Part shown: piece by piece, positions 30,483 through 62,450 of the stretch | How positions within the stretch are numbered: the first letter of the stretch is position 1 | Layout of the letters: every line of letters begins with the position of its first letter | IMG/VR virus record: IMGVR_UViG_3300019889_000015 | Coordinates: 1 to 62,516 of that record | Source: a virus | Lineage: Duplodnaviria; Caudoviricetes | Reading direction: 5' to 3' (one strand) | DNA: 62,516 bases | Notes under the pieces: model-generated | The model's database searches: none | What the model was told of the DNA's origin: nothing | The model's input: the letters and a program-made list of their open reading frames with translations, nothing else | Translations under genes and position numbers: made by a program

Positions 30483-30521
30483 AAAACGGCCCTCCCGAAC
30501 CAACTGCGGGAGGGCCGTTTT
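30483..30521. terminator. bidirectional terminator
   Basis: aaaacggccctcccg / cgggagggccgtttt between convergent genes. Confidence 0.8.
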
Positions 30522-34171: not shown

Positions 34172-34576
34172 TCATTCCTTCTTGTCGTCCGGGGGCTGCT
34201 GTCCCATCGCTTTCAGCTCCTCATCATCGAACAGCGCCACCGCCTGGCGCAGCGTCTCGACGATCAGCTCGTGCTCGCGACGGGCCTCATCCTCGGTGGA
34301 GTGCCGCGTGGTGAACTCCTCGAACTCGGGGTGATCGGCGATCACCTTGTTGATGAGTGCGATGTACCTGTCCCGAGGCGGCTCGAAGACCATCGTCTCG
34401 AAGATCAACGGCGGGCCGTCGCCGTAGCGGTGGTCGGTGCCAAGCCAGGCAGTCGATACCTCGTATGGCCCGACCTTGGTGAACACGACGCGCCGGTAAT
34501 CAAGATCCTCGTAGAGCCTGCCCAGCTCCACCAAGCTGATCGGGTCGCCTTCGCGGTTGTAGTGACGGATCGTCAT
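34172..34576 (-). CDS. conserved phage protein
   Basis: VSTAWLGTDH.....PLIFETMVF motif. Confidence 0.7.
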   Translation of the reverse strand: MTIRHYNREGDPISLVELGRLYEDLDYRRVVFTKVGPYEVSTAWLGTDHRYGDGPPLIFETMVFEPPRDRYIALINKVIADHPEFEEFTTRHSTEDEARREHELIVETLRQAVALFDDEELKAMGQQPPDDKKE

Positions 34577-34920: not shown

Positions 34921-35110
34921 CGAATAACCCCCTGAAACGTAAGCAGGCGCCGCGCGAGAGTAAGAGGAGGATCACCCCCGCGCGGCGCCCGTGATGTGTT
35001 CGCCGATATCCGATTTGGACGCCGAGCCCGCCAAGGCTTCGAGCGCCGCGATCAGCGCAACATCGGTGATGCTAGTGGCTCGAATTTGGGCTTGTCCGGA
35101 GAATCATAGA

Positions 35111-35193: not shown

Positions 35194-36126
35194 TTAGTTC
35201 AGCACTCGCCGACGAAGCACCGCTGCCGCGCCACCGGCCATGAGCAGACCAAGGCCGATGATGATGCCCATGCTGCTCGATCCGCCAGTGTCCGGCAGGT
35301 CGTCGCCGTCCTCGGTCCCGTCGTCGTCACCGTCCGGCGGCGTCGTCGGGTCCGGAGTCGGCTCCGTGGTCGGCTCCGGCTCCGGATCTAGCGTGGGGTC
35401 CGGGTCCGGCGTGGGGTCCGGGTCCGGGTCCGGCGTCGGGTCCGGGTCCGGGGCGCAGTCCTCCTCGCTGGGCGAGGGGTTGACCGTCAATGGCCACGTG
35501 GCCTTCGGGTGCTGATTCAGCCACGCCTGGACGGCGTAGTCACCGGCTTCGATGTCGTGATCTCCGGCCTCGATCGACTGACCTTCGACATCATCCTGGA
35601 GCTTGTTCGTGTAGGACCACTTGTCCGACTCCGGGATGGTCAGGGTAGCGATCGGGTCTTCGCAGGTGGGCTGCGTCACCGTGGGCGCACTGGGGGAACA
35701 GTCGCTGTCCGGGACATCGATCGTCCACCACTGCTCGGGGTCGTACAGGTCGGATTCGGCGCCACGTGCCCAGCGGTAGCTGATGGTGTGTTCGCCGGAG
35801 TCCTCGGGCAGGGGGATGGTGACGACCTGCTCGTGGACCTCCTCGCGACCATCCACGGTCACGGTGTGCCAGAGGTCACCGAACTCGTCTGTCGACAGCG
35901 GGGCTTCGTCGTCGATCTTGTAGTCGCCGACAAAGAGCCACGGTGTCGGGTTCTCGAACTTCAGGACGGCGGTCCCACACTTCTCGAACGTCTTGATGTT
36001 CAGTTCTTCCTTCGGCGGGTGATCGCCGCCCGTGAGGGGCGTGACCTCCACGATCGCGGTGGCCGGTGCCAGGCCCGTCAGCATCAGGGCTGGTGCGGCA
36101 ACCAGCGCGAGAAGAATCTTGCGCAC
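35194..36126 (-). CDS. LPXTG sortase-anchored surface protein
   Basis: Signal peptide, PD/PT stalk, LPDTG plus TM helix plus RRR tail; GAAAGGA RBS. Confidence 0.85.
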   Translation of the reverse strand: MRKILLALVAAPALMLTGLAPATAIVEVTPLTGGDHPPKEELNIKTFEKCGTAVLKFENPTPWLFVGDYKIDDEAPLSTDEFGDLWHTVTVDGREEVHEQVVTIPLPEDSGEHTISYRWARGAESDLYDPEQWWTIDVPDSDCSPSAPTVTQPTCEDPIATLTIPESDKWSYTNKLQDDVEGQSIEAGDHDIEAGDYAVQAWLNQHPKATWPLTVNPSPSEEDCAPDPDPTPDPDPDPTPDPDPTLDPEPEPTTEPTPDPTTPPDGDDDGTEDGDDLPDTGGSSSMGIIIGLGLLMAGGAAAVLRRRVLN

Positions 36127-36226
36127 GGTTGGTCCTTTCAACAGGGTCAATTAACACGAACAAAACGAGCAACGGCGTGGACATTACCTCATCGAATGTC
36201 GTCGTGGGGCACGAACTGGAACTTTT

Positions 36227-43013: not shown

Positions 43014-43564
43014 TCGTCGCCGGGATCGACCCGTCGCTCACGTCGACCGGCATAGCCCTCATCAACACCGACACCGGCTCCGTGGAGCTGCACACGGTCA
43101 AGTCCAAGGGCTTGGCCACCGACCCGGTGATGACGCGCTGGGAGCGGCTGAAGAAGATCTCCATCGAGGTCCGCCGGATCATCTACGGCTCCGCGCTCGT
43201 CGTGATCGAGGGGCCGTCGATGGCGTCTCGCCACGGCAGCAAGCACGACCGCTCCGGGCTCTGGTGGATGATCGTCGCCCACGCACGGGCCATCGACGCC
43301 GCCGTGACCGAGGTCCCGCCCACCGTGCGCGCCAAGTACGCCACCGGGAAGGGCAACGCGAATAAGGACGACGTGCTGCTGGCCGTCGATCGCCGGTACG
43401 GCTCGCTGGTCAGGATCGGCGGCAACGACCAGGCCGACGCGCTCGTGTTCGCCGCAATGGGTGCCCGGTCGCTCGGCTACGGGATCGAGGACTCGCTGCC
43501 GAAGGTGAACATCGCCGCCATGCAGACGGTCGTCTGGCCGTGGGTCTACGAGGTTGAGCTGTGA
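43010..43564 (+). CDS. ruvC: RuvC-like Holliday junction resolvase
   Basis: GIDPSLTSTG, VVIEG, ATGKGNA.K and ADA motifs. Confidence 0.85.
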   Translation: MIVAGIDPSLTSTGIALINTDTGSVELHTVKSKGLATDPVMTRWERLKKISIEVRRIIYGSALVVIEGPSMASRHGSKHDRSGLWWMIVAHARAIDAAVTEVPPTVRAKYATGKGNANKDDVLLAVDRRYGSLVRIGGNDQADALVFAAMGARSLGYGIEDSLPKVNIAAMQTVVWPWVYEVEL

Positions 43565-43830
43565 CCGCCGCCTCGCCGCTGTCGGTGCTCGACGAGGCAG
43601 CCCAGATCATCAACGGCCAGCGGCAGCTCGACTACGGCACGCCAGCGGAGTCGTTCGGCCGCATCGCGAACCTGTGGTCGGACTACCTGGGCATCGAGGT
43701 CACCCCGCCCGACGTGGCCAACCTCATGATCTTGCTCAAGGTGTCGAGGGCCAAGCAGGGATTCCACCGCGACTCGTACGTCGACATCGCCGGGTACGCG
43801 GGCTGCGCCGAGCTGCTGGAGTCGTCATGA
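43561..43830 (+). CDS. DUF6378-like protein
   Basis: R..DYG.P.ESF.RIA.LWS...LK.SR...DS.VD.AGY. Confidence 0.75.
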   Translation: MTAASPLSVLDEAAQIINGQRQLDYGTPAESFGRIANLWSDYLGIEVTPPDVANLMILLKVSRAKQGFHRDSYVDIAGYAGCAELLESS

Positions 43831-53219: not shown

Positions 53220-54137
53220 GTGCGCGTGCTGAACATTCCCGGCGGGGCCGACACGGGCGGCAACGGGTGGCGGACCAAGGATGCGTTCGACAGGTACCTC
53301 CCCGAGTGGACGTACAACCTGTGCGTCTCCAGCCCCAAGTACATGCTCTACCCGGTCGACCGGCCGTGGAGCGAGGCCCGGCAGCTCTGGGAAGCCGCCG
53401 ACGTCGTTCACGTCCGCAACAACTACGAGATCGAGCGGGTCCTGGGCGTGCAGCCCCGGCCCACCGTGATCCAGCACCACGGCACCCACTTCCGCACCGA
53501 GCACAACCAGCTCCGGCGGATAGCGGCGGCCCGTCGCTCGATCCAGATCGCCTCGACGCTTGACCTTTGGCTGATCGCCCCCGACGAGACCGAGTGGCTT
53601 CCGTCCCCGTACGACCTCGACTGGCTCCACGGCTTCCGCCTGCCGGACGAGGTACGCCCCGACGACGGCGTGTTCCGCATCGCCCACGCGCCCACCGATC
53701 GGCGAGTGAAGTCGACCGAACGGTTGATCGCCGCCGTCGAACGGCTGAGGAACTACGTGCCCGTCGAGCTGGACCTGATCGAGAACGCCTCGTGGCAGGA
53801 CTGCCTGCGGCGCAAGGGCCGGGCCGACGTCTACTTCGATCAGGTGATCCTGGGCTACGGCAACAACGCGATCGAGTCCTGGGGTATGGGCGTCCCCGTC
53901 ATCGCCGGGGCCGCCGACGCCACACTCGACGAGATGACGCGCCGGTTCGGCTCGCTGCCGTTCTACCCGGCCGACCAGACCACGATCTTTGACGCACTGA
54001 TGGCCCTCGCCGATCCTGAGACGAGGGCCACCTGGGCGAAGCGGGGCGAGGAGCACGTGTGGGAATTCCACGACGAGGCCGCCGTGGTCCCCCAGCTCCA
54101 GGACATGTACCAGCGGGCGTACGACGCCGGGGCTTAG
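53220..54137 (+). CDS. GT-B glycosyltransferase
   Basis: IAHAPT.R..KST, ADVYFDQ...GYG..AIESW.MG.PVI motifs; GGAG RBS. Confidence 0.8.
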   Translation: MRVLNIPGGADTGGNGWRTKDAFDRYLPEWTYNLCVSSPKYMLYPVDRPWSEARQLWEAADVVHVRNNYEIERVLGVQPRPTVIQHHGTHFRTEHNQLRRIAAARRSIQIASTLDLWLIAPDETEWLPSPYDLDWLHGFRLPDEVRPDDGVFRIAHAPTDRRVKSTERLIAAVERLRNYVPVELDLIENASWQDCLRRKGRADVYFDQVILGYGNNAIESWGMGVPVIAGAADATLDEMTRRFGSLPFYPADQTTIFDALMALADPETRATWAKRGEEHVWEFHDEAAVVPQLQDMYQRAYDAGA

Positions 54138-54280
54138 CTGGCGGGCCGGTTGAAATCCTCGTGCCGCCCGGAGCCGTTGCAGATCCTCCCTCTGGGGCGC
54201 GTGGAGTGCTGGGCGAGGAACCCGTTGGGGTCCACGCGTACGCCCTCCCGGCCGCACTCGTGGCATGTCGTGATCTTCAT
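54134..54280 (-). CDS. small Cys/His protein (48 aa)
   Basis: Hand translation CHEC...H...CNGSG. Confidence 0.5.
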   Translation of the reverse strand: MKITTCHECGREGVRVDPNGFLAQHSTRPRGRICNGSGRHEDFNRPAS

Positions 54281-54456
54281 GTCCGCCTCTCCCTCTCCAG
54301 CCGCAGCAGGATCTCCAGCGCGCCAGAGGCCTCGCGGATCAGCTTGGCCAGTTCCTCGGTTCCCAGCTCGATGTTGGCTATGCGGCCACCGGTGCCGACA
54401 TGTTGCGAGACGCGGCTACTCAGCTCGGCCCGAGTGACGCATTCCTTTTCCGGCAT
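54277..54456 (-). CDS. hypothetical protein (59 aa)
   Basis: Hand translation; ATGA overlap. Confidence 0.45.
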   Translation of the reverse strand: MPEKECVTRAELSSRVSQHVGTGGRIANIELGTEELAKLIREASGALEILLRLERERRT

Positions 54457-54465
54457 TTGCCCCCC

Positions 54466-54684
54466 CTAGAGTTTCCGGCCGGTACCCCGGCTTGCTCGAA
54501 GTCGATCTTCTAGATCGTCACACCCGGCGTCGTTGCCGACCGGGCCGTACTGATTGACGAGCAGGAACCACGGGCACCGATACCCGTCGTCCTGCCGCGT
54601 CCAGAGCTTGCGACCTCGCGCCCACAACTCGCCCTCCTGGTCCCGGACGACGGCGTACATGCGCTTCGGCTCGTCCATGATCAT
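54466..54684 (-). CDS. hypothetical protein
   Basis: VRD.EG..W.R...W...W..L...YGP motif. Confidence 0.6.
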   Translation of the reverse strand: MIMDEPKRMYAVVRDQEGELWARGRKLWTRQDDGYRCPWFLLVNQYGPVGNDAGCDDLEDRLRASRGTGRKL

Positions 54685-54716
54685 TCCTCTCTAGGCCAGT
54701 GTCAGCCAGAACCAGA

Positions 54717-54935
54717 TCATGCGGTGGTCTCCAGCTCGAACCGGCTCGCATGCCATGGCCCTGGCTCTGCTGCCCCGTCGAACTGGACAGTCACCCAGCG
54801 GTGGTTTTCAGAGTCCACGGTCACGGTGCCGATGGTCCCGACCGGGAACGGGAGGACCCGCGCCCTGGTCGGTAGCACGCTCGGCAACGTGTTGTTGATC
54901 AACCGCACGCGGTCACCCTTTTTGAACATTTTCAT
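54717..54935 (-). CDS. SH3-like small protein
   Basis: FKKGDRVRL...GTIGTV...V.FD. Confidence 0.6.
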   Translation of the reverse strand: MKMFKKGDRVRLINNTLPSVLPTRARVLPFPVGTIGTVTVDSENHRWVTVQFDGAAEPGPWHASRFELETTA

Positions 54936-55170
54936 CGCCGGTCACCCTCTTTCGCGGCTCCTCGATCCTGTGGGTCTCCAGGTATCGGCGAGCGGCCCTG
55001 TAGTCCTCGTGACGGGGGGGATCGGTCAGCTCCAGCACACGGTCCACGAACGCTTGCCACTGCGACTGACTGAGGAATATGTAAGCCGTGGGGGACGGTT
55101 TACGCGCCCTCTTGAAGATGTGTTCGCGGGCGATGATGTCGATGGCCTCGGCGAGACGATTGTCGGCCAT
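54913..55170 (-). CDS. hypothetical protein
   Basis: TGATG coupling; MADNRL N-terminus. Confidence 0.55.
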   Translation of the reverse strand: MADNRLAEAIDIIAREHIFKRARKPSPTAYIFLSQSQWQAFVDRVLELTDPPRHEDYRAARRYLETHRIEEPRKRVTGDENVQKG

Positions 55171-55508
55171 CAGGGCCAGATCCAGTCGACTCGAACCCAG
55201 TTGAACCTGTCAGGTTGCAACATCCTCACCGTGGCATAGGCCATAGCGTCGGTGACCGTCTGCATCAGCAGTTGTCGTTGGTCATCGGCCTGTTGCCATG
55301 CCGACGACGTGATCGTGAATCGTCGGGTGTGTTCAGGCATCGGCCGGAGTGGGATCACCCCGGCCACGACCTCGATGATGAGGCGCGCACCGTCGGCTTG
55401 CGGGGGCTGGCTTGCGGCCTGCGTTTGCTGGATCGCATCGATCAATTCCTGGGGCATCGGCATCTCGTAGCTACCGGGCGGCAGGATGTTGCTGGGCTCG
55501 TTGGTCAT
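55170..55508 (-). CDS. hypothetical protein, paralogue of 28816-29058
   Basis: Visible alignment; GAGGAG RBS. Confidence 0.65.
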   Translation of the reverse strand: MTNEPSNILPPGSYEMPMPQELIDAIQQTQAASQPPQADGARLIIEVVAGVIPLRPMPEHTRRFTITSSAWQQADDQRQLLMQTVTDAMAYATVRMLQPDRFNWVRVDWIWP

Positions 55509-55816
55509 GAATTCTCCTCTGGCGCGGGGAACGCCGGGACGGGCTGCGCTAGGGCGGCGTCGGCAATCGCCTTGAGTAGGTTCTGCTCGTTGAACACCGC
55601 CGTGCGGACGGTCTTCCCGGTCTCCTTGTCCTTGATCCAGAGCTTTATCCCCAGGGGGATGATCCGTACCCAGGTCAGCTCATACTTGTCGCTCTCGCCC
55701 GAGGCGAGAACCTGCGTCAGGTTCATCGGCGAGTAGCCCTCGTGGATCTCTAGCGGCAGGCCCGGCAGGGTGACCGTGGTTGGTTCCGGGTGGGTGTGCG
55801 ACTCAGTGATCTTCAT
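55505..55816 (-). CDS. hypothetical protein
   Basis: AGAGGA RBS. Confidence 0.6.
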   Translation of the reverse strand: MKITESHTHPEPTTVTLPGLPLEIHEGYSPMNLTQVLASGESDKYELTWVRIIPLGIKLWIKDKETGKTVRTAVFNEQNLLKAIADAALAQPVPAFPAPEENS

Positions 55817-55828
55817 CGTTTTTCCTCT

Positions 55829-56068
55829 CTAGGCCAGTGCAGCGGACATCGACCAGAAACTGACGAACAAGATCACGACCGAACCCCCGGCCGGACCGTA
55901 GACCGGGATCTTGGCGTGCCACCCCTCGCGGCCCCAGACGGCCACTGGGATGACCAGACAGAGCCCCATGGCAGCCAGTCCCGCGAGGATGCCCACGGCG
56001 CTCCCACGGGGCGCCAGACGCGGCACGAAGGCCAGCACGAGCGCCGCGACGACCATCGCGCGGATCAC
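55829..56068 (-). CDS. three-TM membrane protein
   Basis: Hydrophobic throughout. Confidence 0.55.
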   Translation of the reverse strand: MIRAMVVAALVLAFVPRLAPRGSAVGILAGLAAMGLCLVIPVAVWGREGWHAKIPVYGPAGGSVVILFVSFWSMSAALA

Positions 56069-56484
56069 TGGCGCGTCTCCCGGTCGGCCTTGGCGCGACG
56101 GATGCGGGCCGAATACGCCTCGCGCGTCTGGTCGGCTATAGCCGTCAGGATCTTGTCGGTCATTTCCCCCAGGTGATCACGGTCGTCGTGGTCGACGGGG
56201 GTAGCGCCCTGCCCCAGCTCGCCTTCCCGGTGGGCGTGACGCTCCGGCACGGTCAGCGACGCCAACGGGCTGCCGTCCTCCCTGAGTCGGTTACGGGTCG
56301 TCGCGCGGAACGCGGGAACAGTGAACGTCCCCAGACTGTCCGACAGCTCGCGCGCCCTCTGCAAGATCATGTCCGGGATCATCCCGATCACGTCGTCTTC
56401 TACCTCGGCCGGGTCTAGCCCGTACTCATTGGCCCACGCTTTCAGGTCGACATCGACACGTAGTGTCAGGGTCAATCTGGCCAT
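56065..56484 (-). CDS. cassette gene, hypothetical
   Basis: ATG directly follows element copy 1. Confidence 0.7.
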   Translation of the reverse strand: MARLTLTLRVDVDLKAWANEYGLDPAEVEDDVIGMIPDMILQRARELSDSLGTFTVPAFRATTRNRLREDGSPLASLTVPERHAHREGELGQGATPVDHDDRDHLGEMTDKILTAIADQTREAYSARIRRAKADRETRQ

Positions 56485-56574
56485 GATCGTTCTCCTCGCT
56501 CGGTTGTGAGGTCGTCCGGTCGGACGTGGCACGCGACAGCTCCCCGGCGGCTGTCACGCACCATGCGCGACCGG
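56485..56574 (-). repeat. intergenic structured element, copy 1
   Basis: Long stem plus cgtcc-GACC-ggacg hairpin plus CAACCGAGCGAGGAGAACGATC. Confidence 0.9.
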
Positions 56575-56814
56575 TCAGCGCCCGGACCCTACCGGGGTCA
56601 CCCGGATGATCTTGTCCCCCCGCGTCGTGATCTCGACGGGCACGCCGATGTTCTCGGAGTTGGTGATGCCGTAATTCACGGCCCCGTCCGCATCGGTCAG
56701 CATCGAACCGATGTCGCCCGCGAAGAACACCTGGTGTCGCGGGTTGCCGTTGTTGGTGTTCGCCCCGACGCGTTCCACGCTCGCGATGGTGGCGACGAAA
56801 GTGTGCTTGGTCAT
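56575..56814 (-). CDS. cassette gene, hypothetical
   Basis: NTNNGNPR motif; stop abuts element. Confidence 0.7.
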   Translation of the reverse strand: MTKHTFVATIASVERVGANTNNGNPRHQVFFAGDIGSMLTDADGAVNYGITNSENIGVPVEITTRGDKIIRVTPVGSGR

Positions 56815-57149
56815 GATCGTTTGCTCCTGTTCACTCTGATGTACTCCCACGTGCCGTCCCATGTACCGTCGTCCCACGACTCGCCGACTGGTCCCCAGCC
56901 GTGCTCGCGCAGCAGGCGTAGGACCAGCTCCCGGCCCGGCCCGGTGTCGAGGTTCGGGCACTGGTACTCGGGTTCCAGGTCGGTCTGGTCGTGCTCGTCG
57001 TCGAAATAGTTCGCGTCGAACACGTCGACCTGGGAGCCCTCATCATCGACGACATGGACCGGCACCGAGTAGCAGAATCGGCCGTTGACGTGTCCGACTG
57101 CCGCTTCACCGCCCGGCCCGTCAACGTTGTTCAGTTTCGCCGTGAACAT
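56811..57149 (-). CDS. acidic hypothetical protein
   Basis: GGAGGGG RBS. Confidence 0.55.
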   Translation of the reverse strand: MFTAKLNNVDGPGGEAAVGHVNGRFCYSVPVHVVDDEGSQVDVFDANYFDDEHDQTDLEPEYQCPNLDTGPGRELVLRLLREHGWGPVGESWDDGTWDGTWEYIRVNRSKRS

Positions 57150-57546
57150 GGCCCCTCCCCCCGGTCTTCTTGGTCTTCTTGGCAGGCTTGCGCGGTGTGC
57201 CCAGCCATGCGGATACCGTGCGCCAGTCGCGCCCGACAAGGCGCGCGGCAGCGAGCTTGGACGCTCCTTGGGCGATTTCCATGGTGACGATCTGCCGTAG
57301 TCCGGCCAGTGCCTCGGCTTCGGCCTGACGGGCTTGGGCGAGCTTGAGATTCAGCCGTGCGACCTCCCGGTCGCGCTCCCCGGCGAGATGCTTATACGCC
57401 GCTATGCGCGCGTCGGTGCGCTCCCCGTCCCGGTCGGCCGGGTACCGCTCGTTGATCTCGTCGAACAGGACGGCCAGCTCTCGCGCCCGCTCGTCGGGCA
57501 CGTCTTCGTCGAGCCACATACGGATCTCGTCGAGACTCGTCGCCAT
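57121..57546 (-). CDS. C-terminal HTH protein
   Basis: GASKLAAARLVGRDWRTVSAWLG; preceded by a truncated element (57547-57574). Confidence 0.7.
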   Translation of the reverse strand: MATSLDEIRMWLDEDVPDERARELAVLFDEINERYPADRDGERTDARIAAYKHLAGERDREVARLNLKLAQARQAEAEALAGLRQIVTMEIAQGASKLAAARLVGRDWRTVSAWLGTPRKPAKKTKKTGGRGHVHGETEQR

Positions 57547-57574
57547 GATCGTTTCTCCCCTTGCTATTGGTCGG

Positions 57575-58042
57575 TCAGTTGCTCGCGTCGGCCCGCGTAC
57601 GAACGATAGTGATCGTGCCGCCCCGCGCGAGATGCGTTCGATAGTTTTCGTGGTCGCGTCGGAACGAGACCGTCCCATCCTTGAGCGTGCGCACGCTGAC
57701 AACCGCGTGAGTGCCGCCCCAGATGTCGAACACAAGGTCCCCGGCGCGTAGCTCGGTCACGGGAACCTTGGTCGCGTCCGGCCGCACGTCGGCGATGTCG
57801 ACGATTGCCACGACCGGGGGTGCGTCATCCCCGGCGATACCGGCGATACGGTCGGCCGCGTGCTGGCAGGCGAGCAACTCGGCCGCTCCCCGGTCACCAG
57901 CGCCCCCTAGGCGCTCCCCGGCGAACCGGACCACCCACTCTTGCCCCGGCCTGAGTGCCGGGTCGTCAGCGGGCTCGTAGCGCCCCGCATACTCGATCTC
58001 GACGGAGTAACGGCTGTCGCGCGTCCCATCTCGGTGAAACAT
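57575..58042 (-). CDS. cassette gene, hypothetical
   Basis: ATG follows element copy 2. Confidence 0.7.
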   Translation of the reverse strand: MFHRDGTRDSRYSVEIEYAGRYEPADDPALRPGQEWVVRFAGERLGGAGDRGAAELLACQHAADRIAGIAGDDAPPVVAIVDIADVRPDATKVPVTELRAGDLVFDIWGGTHAVVSVRTLKDGTVSFRRDHENYRTHLARGGTITIVRTRADASN

Positions 58043-58133
58043 GGTCGTTCTCCTCGCTCGGTTGTGAGGTTGCCCGGTCGGGCACGACACGCGACAGCTC
58101 CCCGGTAACTGTCGCGCATCGTGCGCGGTCGGG
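58043..58133 (-). repeat. intergenic structured element, copy 2
   Basis: Near-identical to copies 3 and 4. Confidence 0.9.
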
Positions 58134-58352
58134 TCAGTGCTCGCGCTCGTACGGGTCGATGCCTAGCCGTACCCTGACGGTCTCGTCGAGCTTGCACGGT
58201 TCGATCGTCAGCGTCCCATCAGCCTTGAGCGCGAAGACGATCAGCCCGCTCCCGTTGGGCGACTCGAATCGGATCGTCCGCTCGTTTGGGTAGTCACGGC
58301 GCGTCAACGGCGGTTCGGTGTCCACCATGATCCGGCTACGCGTGTTGCACAT
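58134..58352 (-). CDS. cassette gene, hypothetical
   Basis: Exactly fills the space between copies 2 and 3. Confidence 0.7.
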   Translation of the reverse strand: MCNTRSRIMVDTEPPLTRRDYPNERTIRFESPNGSGLIVFALKADGTLTIEPCKLDETVRVRLGIDPYEREH

Positions 58353-58442
58353 GATCGTTCTCCTCGCTCGGTTGTGAGGTTGCCCGGTCGGGCACGACAC
58401 GCGGCAGCTCCCCGGTAGCTGTCGCGCATCGTGTGCGGTCGG
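58353..58442 (-). repeat. intergenic structured element, copy 3
   Basis: tgccc-GACC-gggca variant. Confidence 0.9.
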
Positions 58443-58610
58443 TTAGAAACCCTCCGGTAATTCGTAGGGACGCCACACGCGGGCGATGTGCGCCCGGTAC
58501 CGGTCCGCCCCGTTGCCGACGTGACTCCCGCATCGACAGTTCCCCCATGGGCTCACGACGTGCGCCTTTACGACTTGTTGGAAATGTTCGGGCGATCCGT
58601 GCACGATCAT
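58443..58610 (-). CDS. cassette gene, small Cys/His protein
   Basis: H...CRCG...H; exactly fills the space between copies 3 and 4. Confidence 0.7.
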   Translation of the reverse strand: MIVHGSPEHFQQVVKAHVVSPWGNCRCGSHVGNGADRYRAHIARVWRPYELPEGF

Positions 58611-58701
58611 GATCGTTCTCCTCGCTCGGTTGGTGAGGTTGCCCGGTCGGGCACGACACGCGACAGCTCCCCGGTAGCTGTCGCGCATCGTGCGCGGTCG
58701 G
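58611..58701 (-). repeat. intergenic structured element, copy 4
   Basis: gcacgatgcgcgacagct / agctgtcgcgtgtcgtgc stem. Confidence 0.9.
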
Positions 58702-59301
58702 TCAGCCGTCCGCTTTGGCCTTGTGGATCATGCGCAAGATCTTCTTGGCAAGGTCCGGCGACAGGTCCCGCGCGACGATCGTCACGGCGGTTCCTTGGTA
58801 GTTGGATTCGGCTTTCAGCTCGTAGCCCCAGCTAACCTCTGTGCCGTGACCACGCTCGCCGACGTGCGCCCCCGGTGCGAGCTTGCTCAACGACTCGCCC
58901 AGCTTGGCGCGCCCCACTTCCGCCTCGTCGCGCTTGCGTAGCGCGGCCTGTGCCCTTGCCAGTTCCGCTCGGTATTCGGGCAGTACGCGCGTCGCTATGG
59001 CCTTTGCTATGGCCTTAGCGCCCCGCTCGGTCGCCACGGTCGCCCTGACGTTCGCGAGGCCGGGGTAGACCTCGCTGTACGCGCCGAGGGGGTAGTTCCC
59101 GCTAGCCTCGATGCGTGACGCGTCGTCATAGCTATTGCGGCCGCTTGCGGCTAGGTGGATCCGCGCCCCGTCCGGTCCGGCCAGCATGCAGTCATGATCA
59201 TATTTCGATGCCTCGACTACCCACGACTGGCCATCGGCAGCCGTCAGCTCGCGTGCGACGTCGGGCGCGATAGCCCGTATCGTCTCGGTGCCCTTGTTCA
59301 T
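58702..59301 (-). CDS. cassette gene, hypothetical
   Basis: Exactly fills the space between copies 4 and 5. Confidence 0.75.
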   Translation of the reverse strand: MNKGTETIRAIAPDVARELTAADGQSWVVEASKYDHDCMLAGPDGARIHLAASGRNSYDDASRIEASGNYPLGAYSEVYPGLANVRATVATERGAKAIAKAIATRVLPEYRAELARAQAALRKRDEAEVGRAKLGESLSKLAPGAHVGERGHGTEVSWGYELKAESNYQGTAVTIVARDLSPDLAKKILRMIHKAKADG

Positions 59302-59398
59302 GATCGTTCTCCTCGCTCGGTTGTGAGGTCGTCCGGTCGGACGTGGCGCGCGGACAGTTACCCCGGTCGGGTCGCTGTCGCGCACCATGCGCGGTCGG
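59302..59398 (-). repeat. intergenic structured element, copy 5
   Basis: Variant with enlarged apical loop. Confidence 0.9.
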
Positions 59399-59929
59399 TC
59401 AGGGGCGCCTGTAACCGTCGGTACCGTCGAGCTTGTCGGCGAGACTTTCGATCTCGGCGCGCGCGTCGTCGGTCAGCGGCTCAACGAGCCACCGCGACCC
59501 CCACCGATACCCGGTCTCCGGGCACTGTGGCGTGTTGTCGAGCCGGTATCTGCTGCGCTTGTCCCACGACACGTTGTCGGGCACCGTGACGGCCGTTTGA
59601 TGCGCGCAACCCGCGCGCATGTCGTTGAGATGCCAGCGCTCCCACGCGCGACGTAGCGCCCCGATCTCGTCGAGCGTCCACCCCGGCGCCGGGGTCGTGA
59701 TCTCGTTGAGAATGTCGACGATCTGCCCGGCGCCGTCGCTGTCGCGACGACGCGACCTCTCGCGGAACGTGTGACCCATCATCGACACGCGCTCGTGTGC
59801 CCTGATGCCGTGGTGGTCGATTGTCTCGGCGGGCACGCTTTCGCTTTCCCACGCCTGCCATGCGATCGTGATCTCGACGTAGACACTCTCGCCATCGCCG
59901 GTCTTGCCGATGAATCCTTGCCGTTCCAT
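59399..59929 (-). CDS. cassette gene, conserved phage protein
   Basis: GQI...W.RWHLNDMRAGC.HQ...GYRWGS.WL.EPL motif. Confidence 0.8.
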   Translation of the reverse strand: MERQGFIGKTGDGESVYVEITIAWQAWESESVPAETIDHHGIRAHERVSMMGHTFRERSRRRDSDGAGQIVDILNEITTPAPGWTLDEIGALRRAWERWHLNDMRAGCAHQTAVTVPDNVSWDKRSRYRLDNTPQCPETGYRWGSRWLVEPLTDDARAEIESLADKLDGTDGYRRP

Positions 59930-60028
59930 GGTCGTTCTCCTCGCTCGGTCGTTGCTCGGTCGTCCGGTCGGACGTGGCACGCGGACAGTTACCCGGTCGG
60001 GTCGCTGTCGCGCACCATGCGCGGTCGG
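59930..60028 (-). repeat. intergenic structured element, copy 6
   Basis: Most similar to copy 5. Confidence 0.9.
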
Positions 60029-60259
60029 TCAGGCTTCCGGGTTAACGTGCACGTCGAATTCAGCCGTGTGGAAGCCGATCACGGCCAGCACGCGGAAGCC
60101 TTGATGTGTCACGAGCGAGTCAGCGTGCCCGGCATTCGCAGCCCCCTTGACCGTGATCACTTCCGATCGAACGCGCGTGAGCGTTACCTCGGGGTAACCG
60201 TGCACGGTCGTCTGTGCGAATGTCAGCGTCTCGCCGACGATAAAGTCAGGTCGAATCAT
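60029..60259 (-). CDS. cassette gene, hypothetical
   Basis: Exactly fills the space between copies 6 and 7. Confidence 0.7.
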   Translation of the reverse strand: MIRPDFIVGETLTFAQTTVHGYPEVTLTRVRSEVITVKGAANAGHADSLVTHQGFRVLAVIGFHTAEFDVHVNPEA

Positions 60260-60347
60260 GGTTGATCTCCTCGCTCGGTTGGGTCGTCCGGCCGGACGTG
60301 GCACGCGACAGGTTCCCCCGTCGCTGTCGCGCATCACGCTCGGTCGG
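60260..60347 (-). repeat. intergenic structured element, copy 7
   Basis: cgtcc-GGCC-ggacg variant. Confidence 0.9.
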
Positions 60348-60659
60348 TCAGCCGTGAGAGACGCGTACGCCACCGCGCGGACCGAACTCGACAAGCCGGT
60401 CAGGGTAAGGGTCGGACGTCTCGCGAGGGTCGGACAGATACAGACTCATGCTCGCGCGATCGTCGACGCTCGGAGTCAGCGTTGTGTCGGTCCTGCCGTT
60501 CGCGTAGGTGAACGTCTGAGGCTGCCAGTAGCCAATGTTCGCGCGGTCCGCGAATGCCTCGCGCGCGGCAGCCATGCTCGGGAACGTCTCCAGGTGATCG
60601 TCAAGGTAGGACGGCCCGTAGCTACTGCCACCGTTCCAAAGTGCGAATAGCGTCATCAT
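60348..60659 (-). CDS. cassette gene, conserved actinophage protein
   Basis: W.GGSSY...E.F.S...A...YPD....GPRGGV motif. Confidence 0.75.
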   Translation of the reverse strand: MMTLFALWNGGSSYGPSYLDDHLETFPSMAAAREAFADRANIGYWQPQTFTYANGRTDTTLTPSVDDRASMSLYLSDPRETSDPYPDRLVEFGPRGGVRVSHG

Positions 60660-60705
60660 GATCGTTTCTCCTCGCTCGGTCGTGCTCGGTCGGTCGTCCG
60701 GTCGG
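60660..60705 (-). repeat. intergenic element, copy 8 (large hairpin deleted)
   Basis: Keeps ccgaccggacgacc and the RBS half only. Confidence 0.8.
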
Positions 60706-60882
60706 TCAGGCTACGTCGAGAGTCGCGCTGGCCCCGCTGGTCTCGCGATCCTCAACGGCGTGCCGATAACCGCGCGCAAACGCGATCGAGTAGCCCGTTA
60801 GCTCCGCGTAAGTGAGCGTGCGAGACGTGCCTACGTCGTAGCCCGCTAGGTAGTCTTTGTCGCGCTGCTGTTGTCGCGTCAT
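60706..60882 (-). CDS. cassette gene (58 aa)
   Basis: Hand translation MTRQQQRDKDYLAGYDVG...; ATG and TGA abut elements. Confidence 0.7.
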   Translation of the reverse strand: MTRQQQRDKDYLAGYDVGTSRTLTYAELTGYSIAFARGYRHAVEDRETSGASATLDVA

Positions 60883-60980
60883 GATCGTTGCTCCTCGCTC
60901 GGTCGTGCTCGGTTGGTTGTCCGGTCGGACATGGCACGCGACAGGTTCCCCCGTCGCTGTCGCGCACCACGCTCGGCCGG
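60883..60980 (-). repeat. intergenic structured element, copy 9
   Basis: tgtcc-GACC-ggaca variant. Confidence 0.9.
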
Positions 60981-62012
60981 TCAGTGCCGGTCAGCGTTGC
61001 CGGTCAGTTCGTCCGTGTCGATCCCCTCGCTGTCGGCCCAGTCGTTGAACCCGCAGCGGTAGGCCGTGGGGTCGATCTCGCGCAGCACGCGCGACGGCTG
61101 ATAGGTCAGCTCGCCGATAGTGACCGGCCCGTCGATCTCGTCGATCATGTCGTCATAACGCTCATAAACCTCATCCCACGACAGCGGCTCGTCGTCGTCG
61201 TCATCGTCGTCGGTCTCGGCGTCGTCGGTCTCGGCGACGCTGACCGAGTAGGAGAGGCCTAGGTCGTGGTCGCCGTCATATCCGGGCGTCGCGCCGTGAA
61301 CAGTGCCCGTACCGTCGGCCGCTAGGCCATGTTCGGCCAACCATTCGGACATCTCGCCCTGCCAATGCGCGGCCGTCCCCAGTACGGCGAGCGTTTCACG
61401 CGTGGCCGTGTATTCGCCGGACCAATTGCCGTCCACCCACTCTGGGGAGTTATCCTCGCCCCGTTCGCGCTCGTCCGCGAGGTATTCCCATGCCTCTTGC
61501 GCGCTGTCAAAAACGGCGGGCTCGTCGCCGCCCGTGGGCAGGTATCCGGGCACGTTGATCGTTGCGACGTAGCGCGTTGCGGGCTCGGTCGTCGGCGACT
61601 TGATCTCGTAGAGATCGACTGACCAGACGGGCCGCACGCCATACTCGGCCGACATCCACACGTTGTAGTTGACGACGTACGGGTGACCGTCGAGACCGAC
61701 AAACACACTGTCGCGGTCGGACACAGCCATGCCGTTGAAATCGGCCATGTCGTCGAACACGACGAGACCGTCATCGGCCACGTTGGACACGCTGATCTCA
61801 GTGGGCAGGTAGTCAGGCACACCGTGGAAGATCACAAACGTGTTGCCGTAGTAGTCAGTTTGGATCAGCGAACCGTCGCGTGCGACGTAATCCGGGCGGA
61901 TCACCAACGGCAGTCCGGGGATGCGGTCAGATGCGGCCGTTGGCCAGACCACATGGTGCCCGCCTTGCGCGTTGCTGGTGCTGGGGATGGTCGTCATGTT
62001 GTTGTCAGTCAT
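60981..62012 (-). CDS. acidic multi-domain protein, first gene of the array
   Basis: 343 aa; poly-Asp linker; C-terminal EIDPTAYRCGFNDWAD domain. Confidence 0.75.
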   Translation of the reverse strand: MTDNNMTTIPSTSNAQGGHHVVWPTAASDRIPGLPLVIRPDYVARDGSLIQTDYYGNTFVIFHGVPDYLPTEISVSNVADDGLVVFDDMADFNGMAVSDRDSVFVGLDGHPYVVNYNVWMSAEYGVRPVWSVDLYEIKSPTTEPATRYVATINVPGYLPTGGDEPAVFDSAQEAWEYLADERERGEDNSPEWVDGNWSGEYTATRETLAVLGTAAHWQGEMSEWLAEHGLAADGTGTVHGATPGYDGDHDLGLSYSVSVAETDDAETDDDDDDDEPLSWDEVYERYDDMIDEIDGPVTIGELTYQPSRVLREIDPTAYRCGFNDWADSEGIDTDELTGNADRH

Positions 62013-62048
62013 GGTCGGCGCCTCTCGTGTGCTCGGTTGGTAGGTCGA

Positions 62049-62100
62049 ACACTACGGCCGTTCTACGTACGGCACAACGTATGGCACAACGTACGGCATA
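62049..62100 (-). promoter_or_regulatory. leftward promoter with 12-bp tandem repeats
   Basis: TTGTGC-N17-TAGTGT on the minus strand; cgta(c/t)ggcacaa x2.9. Confidence 0.6.
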
Positions 62101-62147
62101 TTGTTACAACATCGTTATACGCACCTATGGCACAAGGTGATCTTGAT

Positions 62148-62450
62148 ATGCCTAGTCAGCCATGGTCACAGGGCTATAAGGGCTTTCCTACTGCCATGCG
62201 TAGGCGCATATTGCGGGAGGAGAAGCATTGCCGGGTGTGTGGGGAGATAGCCACGGTGGCGGATCACATCGTGGGGCATGCCGATGGTGTGGCCATGGGT
62301 TGGACGTTGACCAGGATTCACAGCAGAGCCAATGGTCAGGCGTTGTGTGATGACTGCCACGATGCGAAGACAGAAGCGGAAAAGAAACGCGGTCGTGAAC
62401 GTAGATCGATCAAGCGTCGGCCAGAGTCGCATCCTGGCCTGATGGGTTGA
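62148..62450 (+). CDS. HNH endonuclease (terminase-associated)
   Basis: CRVC...DHI...N.QALC..CH..KT; upstream of terS on the circular map. Confidence 0.88.
   Translation: MPSQPWSQGYKGFPTAMRRRILREEKHCRVCGEIATVADHIVGHADGVAMGWTLTRIHSRANGQALCDDCHDAKTEAEKKRGRERRSIKRRPESHPGLMG

Follow-up and report, generated by a model that had tools for sequence, protein, structure and literature searches.

The IMG/VR virus record IMGVR_UViG_3300019889_000015 (Duplodnaviria; Caudoviricetes) comprises 62,516 bases. The whole record, with an estimated completeness of about 80%, is the window analyzed here. Toward its right end, a leftward operon of small genes contains a repeated intercistronic element, which we refer to as the cassette. 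Each cassette combines a region that can form a long hairpin, with compensatory base changes between the copies, with a standardized translation leader. The cassettes probably act on messenger RNA (mRNA). We tentatively interpret them as intercistronic hairpins for mRNA processing or stabilization, fused to a leader that standardizes translation initiation, and attribute a probability of about 0.4 to this assignment.

The window was read on the minus strand, and copies were numbered from the T of the stop codon to the G of the ATG. Three repeat families were found in the window: D1 (five units of 94 nt), D2 (seven units of 41 nt) and D3. The core sequence CCGAGCGAGGAG has nine exact occurrences in the window, exclusively on the minus strand (56492-60902). 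When up to one mismatch is allowed, there are 11 matches against 1.3 expected, a number reached by none of 100 shuffles. The eight full cassettes have a length of 94-105 nt, and all are on the minus strand, in the same orientation as the genes. There are 12 junctions; eight have a full cassette, one has a hairpin-less copy of 52 nt (B) and one has a remnant of 34 nt (I). The start at 56812-56820 retains just the last nine bases of the cassette. In each of the full copies, similarity sets in at the upstream stop codon and ends at the downstream ATG. The first bases are TGAC in seven copies and TAAC in cassette G. The original prediction had described the repeat as hairpins, a linker and a ribosome-binding site (RBS). 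This holds, with a slightly greater extent, from stop codon to start codon. The full copies are pairwise 76-96% identical, versus 48-61% for the adjoining 95 nt of coding sequence when aligned in the same way. The most similar copies are neighbors (F/G/H with 94-96%, D/E with 92%), and the copies are mosaics of one another's parts. They can be assigned approximately to three sequence subfamilies (A/C, D/E/K and F/G/H). No copy was found in the window outside intercistronic positions or on the other strand.

Two further readings of the repeat were rejected. (a) The distance from stop codon to ATG uses all three frames (remainders 2, 1, 1, 0, 1, 1, 0, 1, 1, 0), and similarity starts at the stop codon. 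This argues against stop-codon read-through, a selenocysteine signal and an in-frame fusion. (b) Thirteen small genes were mapped on the minus strand between 62012 and 56065, all of which start with ATG. Similarity among them is undetectable (best non-self BLASTP E-value 0.028). Because the flanking open reading frames (ORFs) are mutually unrelated, the repeat is not a by-product of gene duplication.

The hairpin region can be folded in two ways. The original prediction proposed two hairpins on the minus strand, a long stem directly followed by a 5-bp hairpin. Pairs were counted in a MAFFT alignment of the eight copies for the outer nine pairs of the long stem and the 5-bp hairpin, and standard pairs were found in 111 of 112 cells. 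Two-sided changes affect four pairs (13 cells), namely U-A/C-G and G-C/A-U in the stem base and C-G/U-A and U-A/C-G in the small hairpin. In the stem base, F, G and H have cga/ucg, and A, D, E and K have ugg/cca; C has uga/cca, including one A.C. Three versions of the small stem exist: ugccc/gggca in F, G and H, cgucc/ggacg in C, D, E and K, and ugucc/ggaca in A. All base-pair statements of the original prediction on these compensatory changes proved to be exact. Neither the pairing score nor the covariation score of the two-hairpin model was reached by any of 500 shuffles, a test in which related sequences can beat shuffles even without any structure; slid partners pair in 17-57%.

The predicted minimum-energy fold of all eight copies is, however, a different one. 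It has an additional helix, absent from the original prediction, between CCGACCG, adjacent to the stop codon, and CGACCGG, made up of the loop of the small hairpin and the first bases of the 3' arm. This outer 7-bp helix, a 3-bp extension and the 15-bp stem with its tandem U-G/G-U pairs form an extended, imperfect single hairpin of about 23-26 pairs. In all copies, it beats the two-hairpin fold by 1-10 kcal/mol. Its base is located 0-1 nt past the stop codon in 8/8 copies, and the stop codon itself is paired in three of the eight minimum-energy folds. At the two mismatched pairs of the outer helix, all four observed base changes raise complementarity: one A to G in cassette A, another A to G on the opposite side in C, and the double change of AC to GT in K. 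At two positions that are contested between the small hairpin and the stem extension, the former pairs in 8/8 copies and the latter in 5/8 and 7/8. Both folds are plausible by modeling, and they are mutually exclusive. Of the tandem pairs, U-G is kept in 8/8 copies and G-U in 7/8. The apical loop has a length of 11-17 nt. It had been claimed to vary freely, but its GGG.A core is invariant in all copies. Eight of the nine core-bearing leaders are preceded by arms of 15-18 nt with 7-17 nt between them. The individual copies are listed in Table 1.

Table 1. Cassettes, remnants and their transcriptional context in the window (w/o, without).
Feature	Position	Strand	Characteristics
Promoter-like region	62013..62165	minus	153 nt, 47% A+T, upstream of the first operon gene
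Leftward operon of small genes	54134..62012	minus	context of the cassettes
Cassette A, full copy	60880..60983	minus	upstream stop TGA; outer-helix strand CCGGCCG 60974-60980; long hairpin; small hairpin 60918-60931; leader with duplicated ACCGAGC; core CCGAGCGAGGAG 60891-60902; then ATG
Cassette B, w/o hairpin	60657..60708	minus	TGA-CCGACCGG-ACGACC, leader, ATG; same as cassette A or D, but lacking the long hairpin and with one CCGACCG fewer
Cassette C, full copy	60257..60350	minus	one A.C at stem base; small hairpin 60285-60298, loop GGCC
Cassette D, full copy	59927..60031	minus	extra CCCGACCGGG mini-hairpin at apex; one bulged C in 3' arm; small hairpin 59961-59974
Cassette E, full copy	59299..59401	minus	92% identical to D; one tandem G-U pair replaced by G-C; small hairpin 59330-59343
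Cassette F, reference copy	58608..58704	minus	stop 58702-58704; outer-helix 5' strand 58695-58701; long stem with 5' arm 58676-58690, loop 58669-58675 and 3' arm 58654-58668; small hairpin 58640-58653; A/C-rich leader 58611-58639, core 58618-58629; ATG 58608-58610
Cassette G, full copy	58350..58445	minus	96% identical to F; upstream stop TAA; one A.C in inner stem
Cassette H, full copy	58040..58136	minus	96% identical to F; additional C after stop codon; additional U-G beside loop
Remnant I, w/o hairpin	57544..57577	minus	TGACCGACC, then GGGGAGAAACGATCATG; ahead of helix-turn-helix (HTH) gene 57121-57546
Start context alone (GGAGCAAACGATCATG)	56812..56826	minus	inside the end of the upstream gene
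Cassette K, full copy	56482..56577	minus	5' flank CCGGTCG, so that the outer helix is perfectly complementary; one additional U-G in stem; small hairpin 56513-56526

Neither a promoter nor a terminator signal was found in the cassettes. A TANNNT hexamer occurs in none of the ten cassettes and remnants, and a sigma-70-type scan of the cassettes gave no match, so that a promoter within the cassettes was rejected. The ten cassettes are devoid of TTT, of a U-tract and of a terminator-like site. A G+C-rich hairpin is present, but a canonical intrinsic terminator would also require a U-tract of 7-9 nt; the earlier claim that the element is not of this type is thus confirmed. As there is neither a -10-like hexamer nor a U-tract, the cassettes are probably transcribed through. 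The region upstream of the first operon gene has three TANNNT hexamers, the only ones among the operon's 11 intergenic segments that were examined. Other features of this region are a variant leader (AACCGAGCACACGAGAGGCGCCGACCATG), direct repeats of 12 bp (CCGTACGTTGTG) and a -35/-10 match, albeit a loose one (TTGTGC-N17-TAGTGT at 62077). The operon genes are most simply read as one transcript that starts at about 62.1 kb and passes all eight hairpins. The 12-bp direct repeats (CCGTACGTTGTG, CCATACGTTGTG, CCGTACGTAG; 62040-62165, minus strand) extend over the candidate promoter and could be an operator. Two other hairpins were seen elsewhere in the genome. A perfect 15-bp inverted repeat at 30483-30521 (AAAACGGCCCTCCCG ... 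CGGGAGGGCCGTTTT), with 9 nt between its arms and with AAAA and TTTT flanks, resembles a classical two-way intrinsic terminator and is the sole clear one seen. A 20-pair hairpin with a weak T-rich tail (34944-34991, minus strand) follows the end of the minus-strand gene 35194-36150.

The hairpins are followed by a leader of 25-35 nt with 68-72% A+C and at most two U. It ends with a GAGGAG Shine-Dalgarno block, 7-8 nt and the ATG, just as had been described from the sequence (an A/C-rich linker, then the RBS). The start context ACGAYCATG has 13 matches in the window against 1.3 expected, and ten of these are at starts of operon genes.

Close relatives of this phage are lacking in the searched collections. 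A DNA-level search of phage records gave no near match to the region and no distant match to a single cassette. Phages were searched by tblastn with the 199-aa and the 155-aa ORF, and no match was obtained. Close relatives were not found via the helicase-primase and the portal protein, and the search with the 343-aa protein retrieved only one unrelated A/T-rich contig (L220). Exact-pattern scans were applied to IMG/VR (a 14-mer, a stem pattern and a 17-mer) and to genome and metagenome contigs (the 17-mer). Among the matches listed in these scans, there is no second genome with the same repeat, and the 248 listed matches that were examined include none with a hairpin and no foreign locus with two copies.

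More distant counterparts were found via the 176-aa ORF of the operon, as an alignment of 27 of its 73 homologs led to 52 IMG/VR loci. (a) Records L472 and L473 (67% G+C) have two cassettes of the same plan. Each begins with TGA-CCGGGCCGG and continues with a 17-bp stem that includes three or four G-U pairs, possibly a small hairpin, and an A/C-rich leader that precedes AAGGGACCAACCATG. The covariance model that was built from the eight copies scores them with 23.6 and 18.4 bits (rough E-values of about 0.006 and 0.11 in 546 kb). Their sense strand is more stable than the antisense strand by 5.5-8 kcal/mol. In these cassettes, the extended hairpin is the optimum fold, and its outer helix on the stop codon is perfect; for L472, the tandem U-G/G-U recurs, and the same two alternative folds can be drawn. 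In L472, the leader of the ortholog of the 176-aa gene shares AACCGAGCGAGG with the window, although the proteins are just 45% identical. Judged from this comparison, the leader is under constraint across phages. (b) L540 represents a third lineage and has two cassettes. The long hairpins of these two resemble neither each other nor those of the window in sequence, but they are also seated on the stop codon (which is included in the outer helix in copy a), and the same leader follows. (c) The records of the relatives have one to three leader copies, with a single orientation per record, and a control with the reversed pattern gave none. (d) Some leaders from L472 and L540 have a -10-like hexamer (TATGGT, TACGAT) and look different from the hairpin cassettes. 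These promoter-type leaders have a palindrome or a -35 element, a small hairpin and the same A/C-rich leader. A palindrome with a 12-bp stem (GCGCGGCTACAC ... GTGTAGCCGCGC), directly followed by TATGGT, occurs three times in L472 (3739-3777, 5242-5280, 7737-7775). It looks like an operator with a -10 element, of the kind found in the ESAS of phage Adephagia (see below), and a similar one is present in L532.

By sequence comparison, at least two other lineages of uncultured phages share the layout with different hairpin sequences. What is kept across lineages is the long hairpin on the stop codon together with the leader, whereas the hairpin sequence is not kept and the small hairpin not always. 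The compensatory changes, the variable spacer and the differing hairpin sequences of the relatives support a nucleic-acid hairpin rather than a duplex site that is recognized by a protein.

The original prediction did not recognize the repeat as a named family. Indeed, Rfam gave no match in the whole window at the gathering score and, in E-value mode for 56400-61100, only one chance-level miRNA match outside the repeats. Its architecture is, however, of the kind known as SAS/ESAS and PeSL, minus their promoter, and is not categorically new.

(a) SAS and ESAS (start-associated and extended start-associated sequences) are motifs at gene starts, in ESAS with upstream inverted repeats. They are reported for cluster K mycobacteriophages and cluster EF Microbacterium phages (PMC3203893, PMC7302621). 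As is the case here, they are described with a conserved asymmetric RBS block located a few bases (3-9 nt) before the start, with a single orientation, a preference for ATG and an association with non-structural genes of unrelated families. In ESAS, imperfect inverted repeats (about 15-17 bp) whose spacer varies in length directly precede some of the SAS, which also applies to the cassettes. There are several differences. The SAS consensus GGGATAGGAGCCC, with up to two mismatches, has one match in the window against 2.0 expected, which is outside the repeats (at 34193). The SigA-like -35/-10 elements described for the ESAS of Adephagia (PMC11373665) are absent here. The arms of the cassettes covary, whereas Pope et al. 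report little pairing support for theirs (PMC3203893). Finally, the hairpin is seated on the upstream stop codon, and a second, mutually exclusive helix is possible.

(b) PeSL (promoter-early stem-loop) elements of T4-like phages are described with the same order of parts: stop codon, stem-loop with G-T pairs, Shine-Dalgarno sequence and start (PMC2839356). They also occur as many near-identical copies among small ORFs of unknown function, which permits recombination (PMC2839356, PMC4122927). In contrast to the cassettes, PeSL elements are reported to have a strong sigma-70 promoter, A/T-rich tracts and a terminating stem-loop (PMC2839356). The cassettes lack a promoter signal, are located in DNA with about 70% G+C, and recombination between them is something that we infer. 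Copy B is compatible with a deletion; no joints were seen in the contigs of three metagenome runs, which drop rare variants.

According to the sources consulted, motifs of the start-associated kind with upstream inverted repeats have been recorded, from 2011 onward, in actinobacteriophage genomes by the hundreds, with no function demonstrated, and the role of SAS/ESAS is still called unclear (PMC11373665, PMC12699233). The phage analyzed here is an unusually clean case. It has eight copies in one operon, no confounding promoter signal and compensatory changes that favor a folded nucleic acid, and in its counterparts from other uncultured soil phages, fold and leader are retained while the hairpin sequence differs. 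As a test case, it may be of value for phage elements of this class, which have been without a mechanism since 2011. If the cassettes are processing or insulation modules, they would be useful parts for operon building in bacteria with high G+C.

The site of action is most probably the mRNA, as indicated by the kept fold, the variable spacer, the compensated arms, the position between stop and start codon, and the absence of promoter and U-tract. In the reading that we prefer, the cassette would be a stop-to-start intercistronic module within one long leftward transcript of an actinophage. Its first two thirds would fold on the mRNA into the long imperfect hairpin, seated with its base on the stop codon of the upstream gene. 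If the strand beside this stop codon is occupied, the 15-bp stem and the 5-bp hairpin could form instead. The hairpin most likely acts post-transcriptionally, either as substrate of an RNase III-type nuclease or by protecting the 3' end against 3' exonucleases, and in both cases the cistrons would be separated and stabilized. The imperfect duplex of about 23-26 bp predicted in 8/8 copies has a size that suits a double-strand-specific nuclease such as RNase III. A processing or stabilizing element, which was among the options of the original prediction, is also the one favored here, as an interpretation. In phage T7, repeated and mutually similar imperfect hairpins of about two helical turns are cut by RNase III between the early genes of one long transcript, where they act neither as promoters nor as terminators. 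The cassettes are predicted to share the imperfect duplex of about 20 bp or more between cistrons. They do not resemble the T7 sites in sequence, and they combine the hairpin with a fixed translation leader. Following cleavage, the small hairpin may cap the 5' end of the downstream message, an idea that is based on the promoter-type leaders of the relatives, which have a hairpin in the same position. The last third of the cassette, an unstructured A/C-rich leader with a strong Shine-Dalgarno sequence, would provide the same translation start for every downstream ORF, irrespective of the upstream sequence. With their high pairwise identity, the copies would also be ready substrates for homologous recombination, by which small ORFs could be added, deleted or swapped.

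Several observations weigh against this assignment. Copies B and I and the start at 56812 have no hairpin, and with three such junctions in the operon the hairpin is dispensable at some of them. An identity of 76-96% exceeds a purely structural need and is indicative of recent copying, of gene conversion or of recognition by sequence. The covariation is based on approximately three subfamilies and thus on few independent events (four or more double changes on two or more branches). Compensated arms could also result from template switching at a quasi-palindrome, without selection on RNA. To our knowledge, RNase III sites cannot be predicted from sequence.

The question of the strand belongs to the same set of objections. 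The repeat had been claimed to be strand-specific. This is correct as far as the tandem U-G/G-U is concerned, which is A.C on the plus strand. In the two-hairpin model, 99.1% of the cells pair on the sense (minus) strand versus 85.7% on the plus strand, but this difference is almost wholly due to the inherited tandem G-U. The two central mismatches of the outer helix are the mirror image, with A.C on the minus and G.U on the plus strand, and in the extended model pairing is 88.8% on the sense strand versus 85.5% on the other. The eight copies fold equally well on both strands (mean energies of the hairpin region -38.4 versus -38.3 kcal/mol). Independent one-sided changes are balanced at 2:2, with sense G-U in H and K and sense A.C in C and G. 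In L540, it is the antisense strand that folds better (-66.7 versus -61.1 and -82.7 versus -72.2 kcal/mol). The eight copies thus do not demonstrate strand specificity. As the strands cannot be separated, the argument for a role of the RNA rests on position and context.

It is unlikely, but would fit the position of the element, that the hairpins are leaky terminators or attenuators without a tail, each of which stops or pauses a fraction of the polymerases. A ribosome at the stop codon would melt the hairpin base and favor read-through, so that expression would be graded and would depend on upstream translation. The hairpin base is suitably placed in all eight copies, with the stop codon paired in some of the optimum folds, and copy a of L540 has the stop codon within its outer helix. 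Tail-less stem-loop terminators were reportedly described for the early region of phiC31, judging by the title of work by Ingham et al. from 1995. In this actinophage early region, as in the cassettes, the hairpins would be G+C-rich, intergenic and without a U-tract. Usual terminator stems are, however, far shorter than 23-26 bp. Furthermore, eight such hairpins follow one another with no promoter signal in between, so that the distal genes would be silenced even if termination were only moderate. While the stem-loops of PeSL are reported to terminate (PMC2839356), purified recombinant mycobacterial RNA polymerase is reported not to terminate in vitro without a U-tract (PMC3993855), which the cassettes lack.

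With a probability that we rate somewhat lower still, the cassettes are mainly a matter of DNA mechanics, being a palindromic insert or a linker that was copied by recombination, with little regulation beyond the RBS. The mosaic structure of the copies and the high similarity of neighbors would be explained. The long hairpin is flanked by a direct repeat of CCGACCG, while copy B has a single CCGACCGG and resembles an empty or deleted site. The AC-to-GT double change of cassette K perfects the palindrome, as template switching would, and PeSL cassettes are reported to mediate such shuffling (PMC2839356, PMC4122927). However, CCGACCG, as the candidate target-site duplication of an insert resembling a miniature inverted-repeat element (MITE), is itself nearly palindromic and forms the outer helix, and no duplication is seen in L540. 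A mere linker also does not account for the confinement to intercistronic positions on one strand, nor for a leader that is kept across phages with proteins that are 45% identical. Soil metagenome runs of two studies carry the identical sequence. In three DNA runs from the two studies, the pieces that were compared with window positions 56000-62000 have no differing letter. The contigs break at the cassettes, as is expected of repeats, and show neither joints nor deletion variants, although contigs hide rare variants. No RNA run was listed with the operon sequence. A linker role can be combined with any of the other readings.

We consider it improbable that the palindromes are operators on duplex DNA, at which a phage regulator shuts down or times the operon. 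A candidate regulator exists, as the operon gene 57121-57546 matches a PHROG of HTH DNA-binding proteins (phrog_2311, E-value 3e-8), and the inner arms (CGCGACAG / CTGTCGCG) are almost invariant. For ESAS, DNA-binding sites were the interpretation favored by Pope et al. (PMC3203893), the ESAS of Adephagia is described as -35/-10 hexamers with a 15-bp inverted repeat (PMC11373665), and promoter-type palindromes are present in L472. Against this stands the variable half-site spacing; a spacer of 11-17 nt between the arms is ill-suited to a rigid protein dimer on duplex DNA. Compensatory changes in the arms within one genome are unexpected if a single protein specificity is to be served. In addition, none of the ten cassettes has a -10-like hexamer, and the relatives keep a hairpin but not its sequence.

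An RNA operator, by which a sequence-specific RNA-binding protein or a small RNA would co-ordinately switch translation, also has little probability in our view. It would account for the unusually high identity, for the tandem U-G/G-U and its recurrence in L472, for the invariant loop core, and for the fixed leader block with ATG in 13/13 genes. However, no candidate RNA-binding protein was identified. The hairpin is located 25-35 nt upstream of the Shine-Dalgarno block, which is not occluded, and L540 combines two unrelated hairpins with one leader.

It is tempting to speculate that the cassette is a translation-sensing RNA switch that doubles as a gene-cassette linker, but this is a long shot. 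Since the small hairpin cannot coexist with the outer helix, a ribosome that terminates on the upstream ORF would flip the long duplex into the stem plus 5' hairpin. The flipped fold might then decide if the junction is cut, stabilized or read on. The small hairpin is perfect in 8/8 copies and has two covarying pairs, which favors such a switch, as do the base changes that raise the complementarity of the outer helix and the two alternative folds of L472. As a linker, a near-identical module might enable actinophages of the soil to acquire and express additional ORFs with no need for an integrase.

Three further candidates were dismissed. (a) The put RNA of HK022 is a two-stem RNA that occurs once downstream of each early promoter and acts on the polymerase. 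A put-like antiterminator, as considered in the original prediction, fits badly with eight copies at consecutive gene junctions, none of them near the promoter-like region, and with a two-stem fold that is not the optimum. (b) In integrons (attC; Vibrio cholerae repeats), small promoterless ORFs are separated by similar palindromes of one orientation, which have GTTRRRY cores and an adjacent tyrosine recombinase of the IntI type. The array of small unrelated ORFs between highly similar imperfect palindromes is alike, but GTTRRRY is found in one of the ten cassettes (chance level), and the repeat includes the RBS. The sole integrase found, in a scan that did not extend to every ORF, is a serine recombinase 20 kb away. 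(c) N4-type hairpin promoters would require a giant virion polymerase, and the window has no ORF of that size.

The window has a G+C content of 61-69%. Genes for terminase, portal, major head and tape-measure proteins are located in its left part on the plus strand. A large serine recombinase (Resolvase and Recombinase domains) is encoded at 36.5 kb, and replication genes are found at 42-54 kb. The portal protein is at most 44.5% identical to that of any of 1,775 matching phage records, with phages of Arthrobacter, Mycobacterium and Rhodococcus as top matches. On this basis, the phage is classed as an actinophage-like siphovirus without a close cultured relative. Among the 13 mapped operon genes, none has a Pfam family above the cut-off.

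A few side observations concern individual genes. (a) The 176-aa ORF (59399-59929, minus strand) belongs to an unnamed family with 73 metagenome homologs and without a Pfam domain. Invariant residues of this family are H39, W96, C108, H110, C136, Y141 and W147. In three records of uncultured phages, the match is under or beside a gene annotated as "restriction alleviation protein lar". Contigs with members of this family have multi-copy intergenic motifs of their own (L490, L495/L501, L510, L518), such as TCTAGTCACTAGAA, which occurs 14 times in L510, and ATAAATGCTTGACA, which occurs six times each in L495 and L501. (b) At about 62208-62450 on the plus strand, divergent from the operon, the end of a frame resembles a small Cys/His (HNH-like) nuclease (CRVCG ... 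HIVGH ... CDDCH). For the longer frame, Pfam gave only a sub-threshold zinc-finger match, so that the HNH-like identity was not confirmed. (c) The 89-aa protein encoded at 43561-43830 (plus strand) matches DUF6378 (E-value 2.4e-32). The matching PHROG families are labeled "phosphofructokinase", which is an improbable name for a protein of this size.

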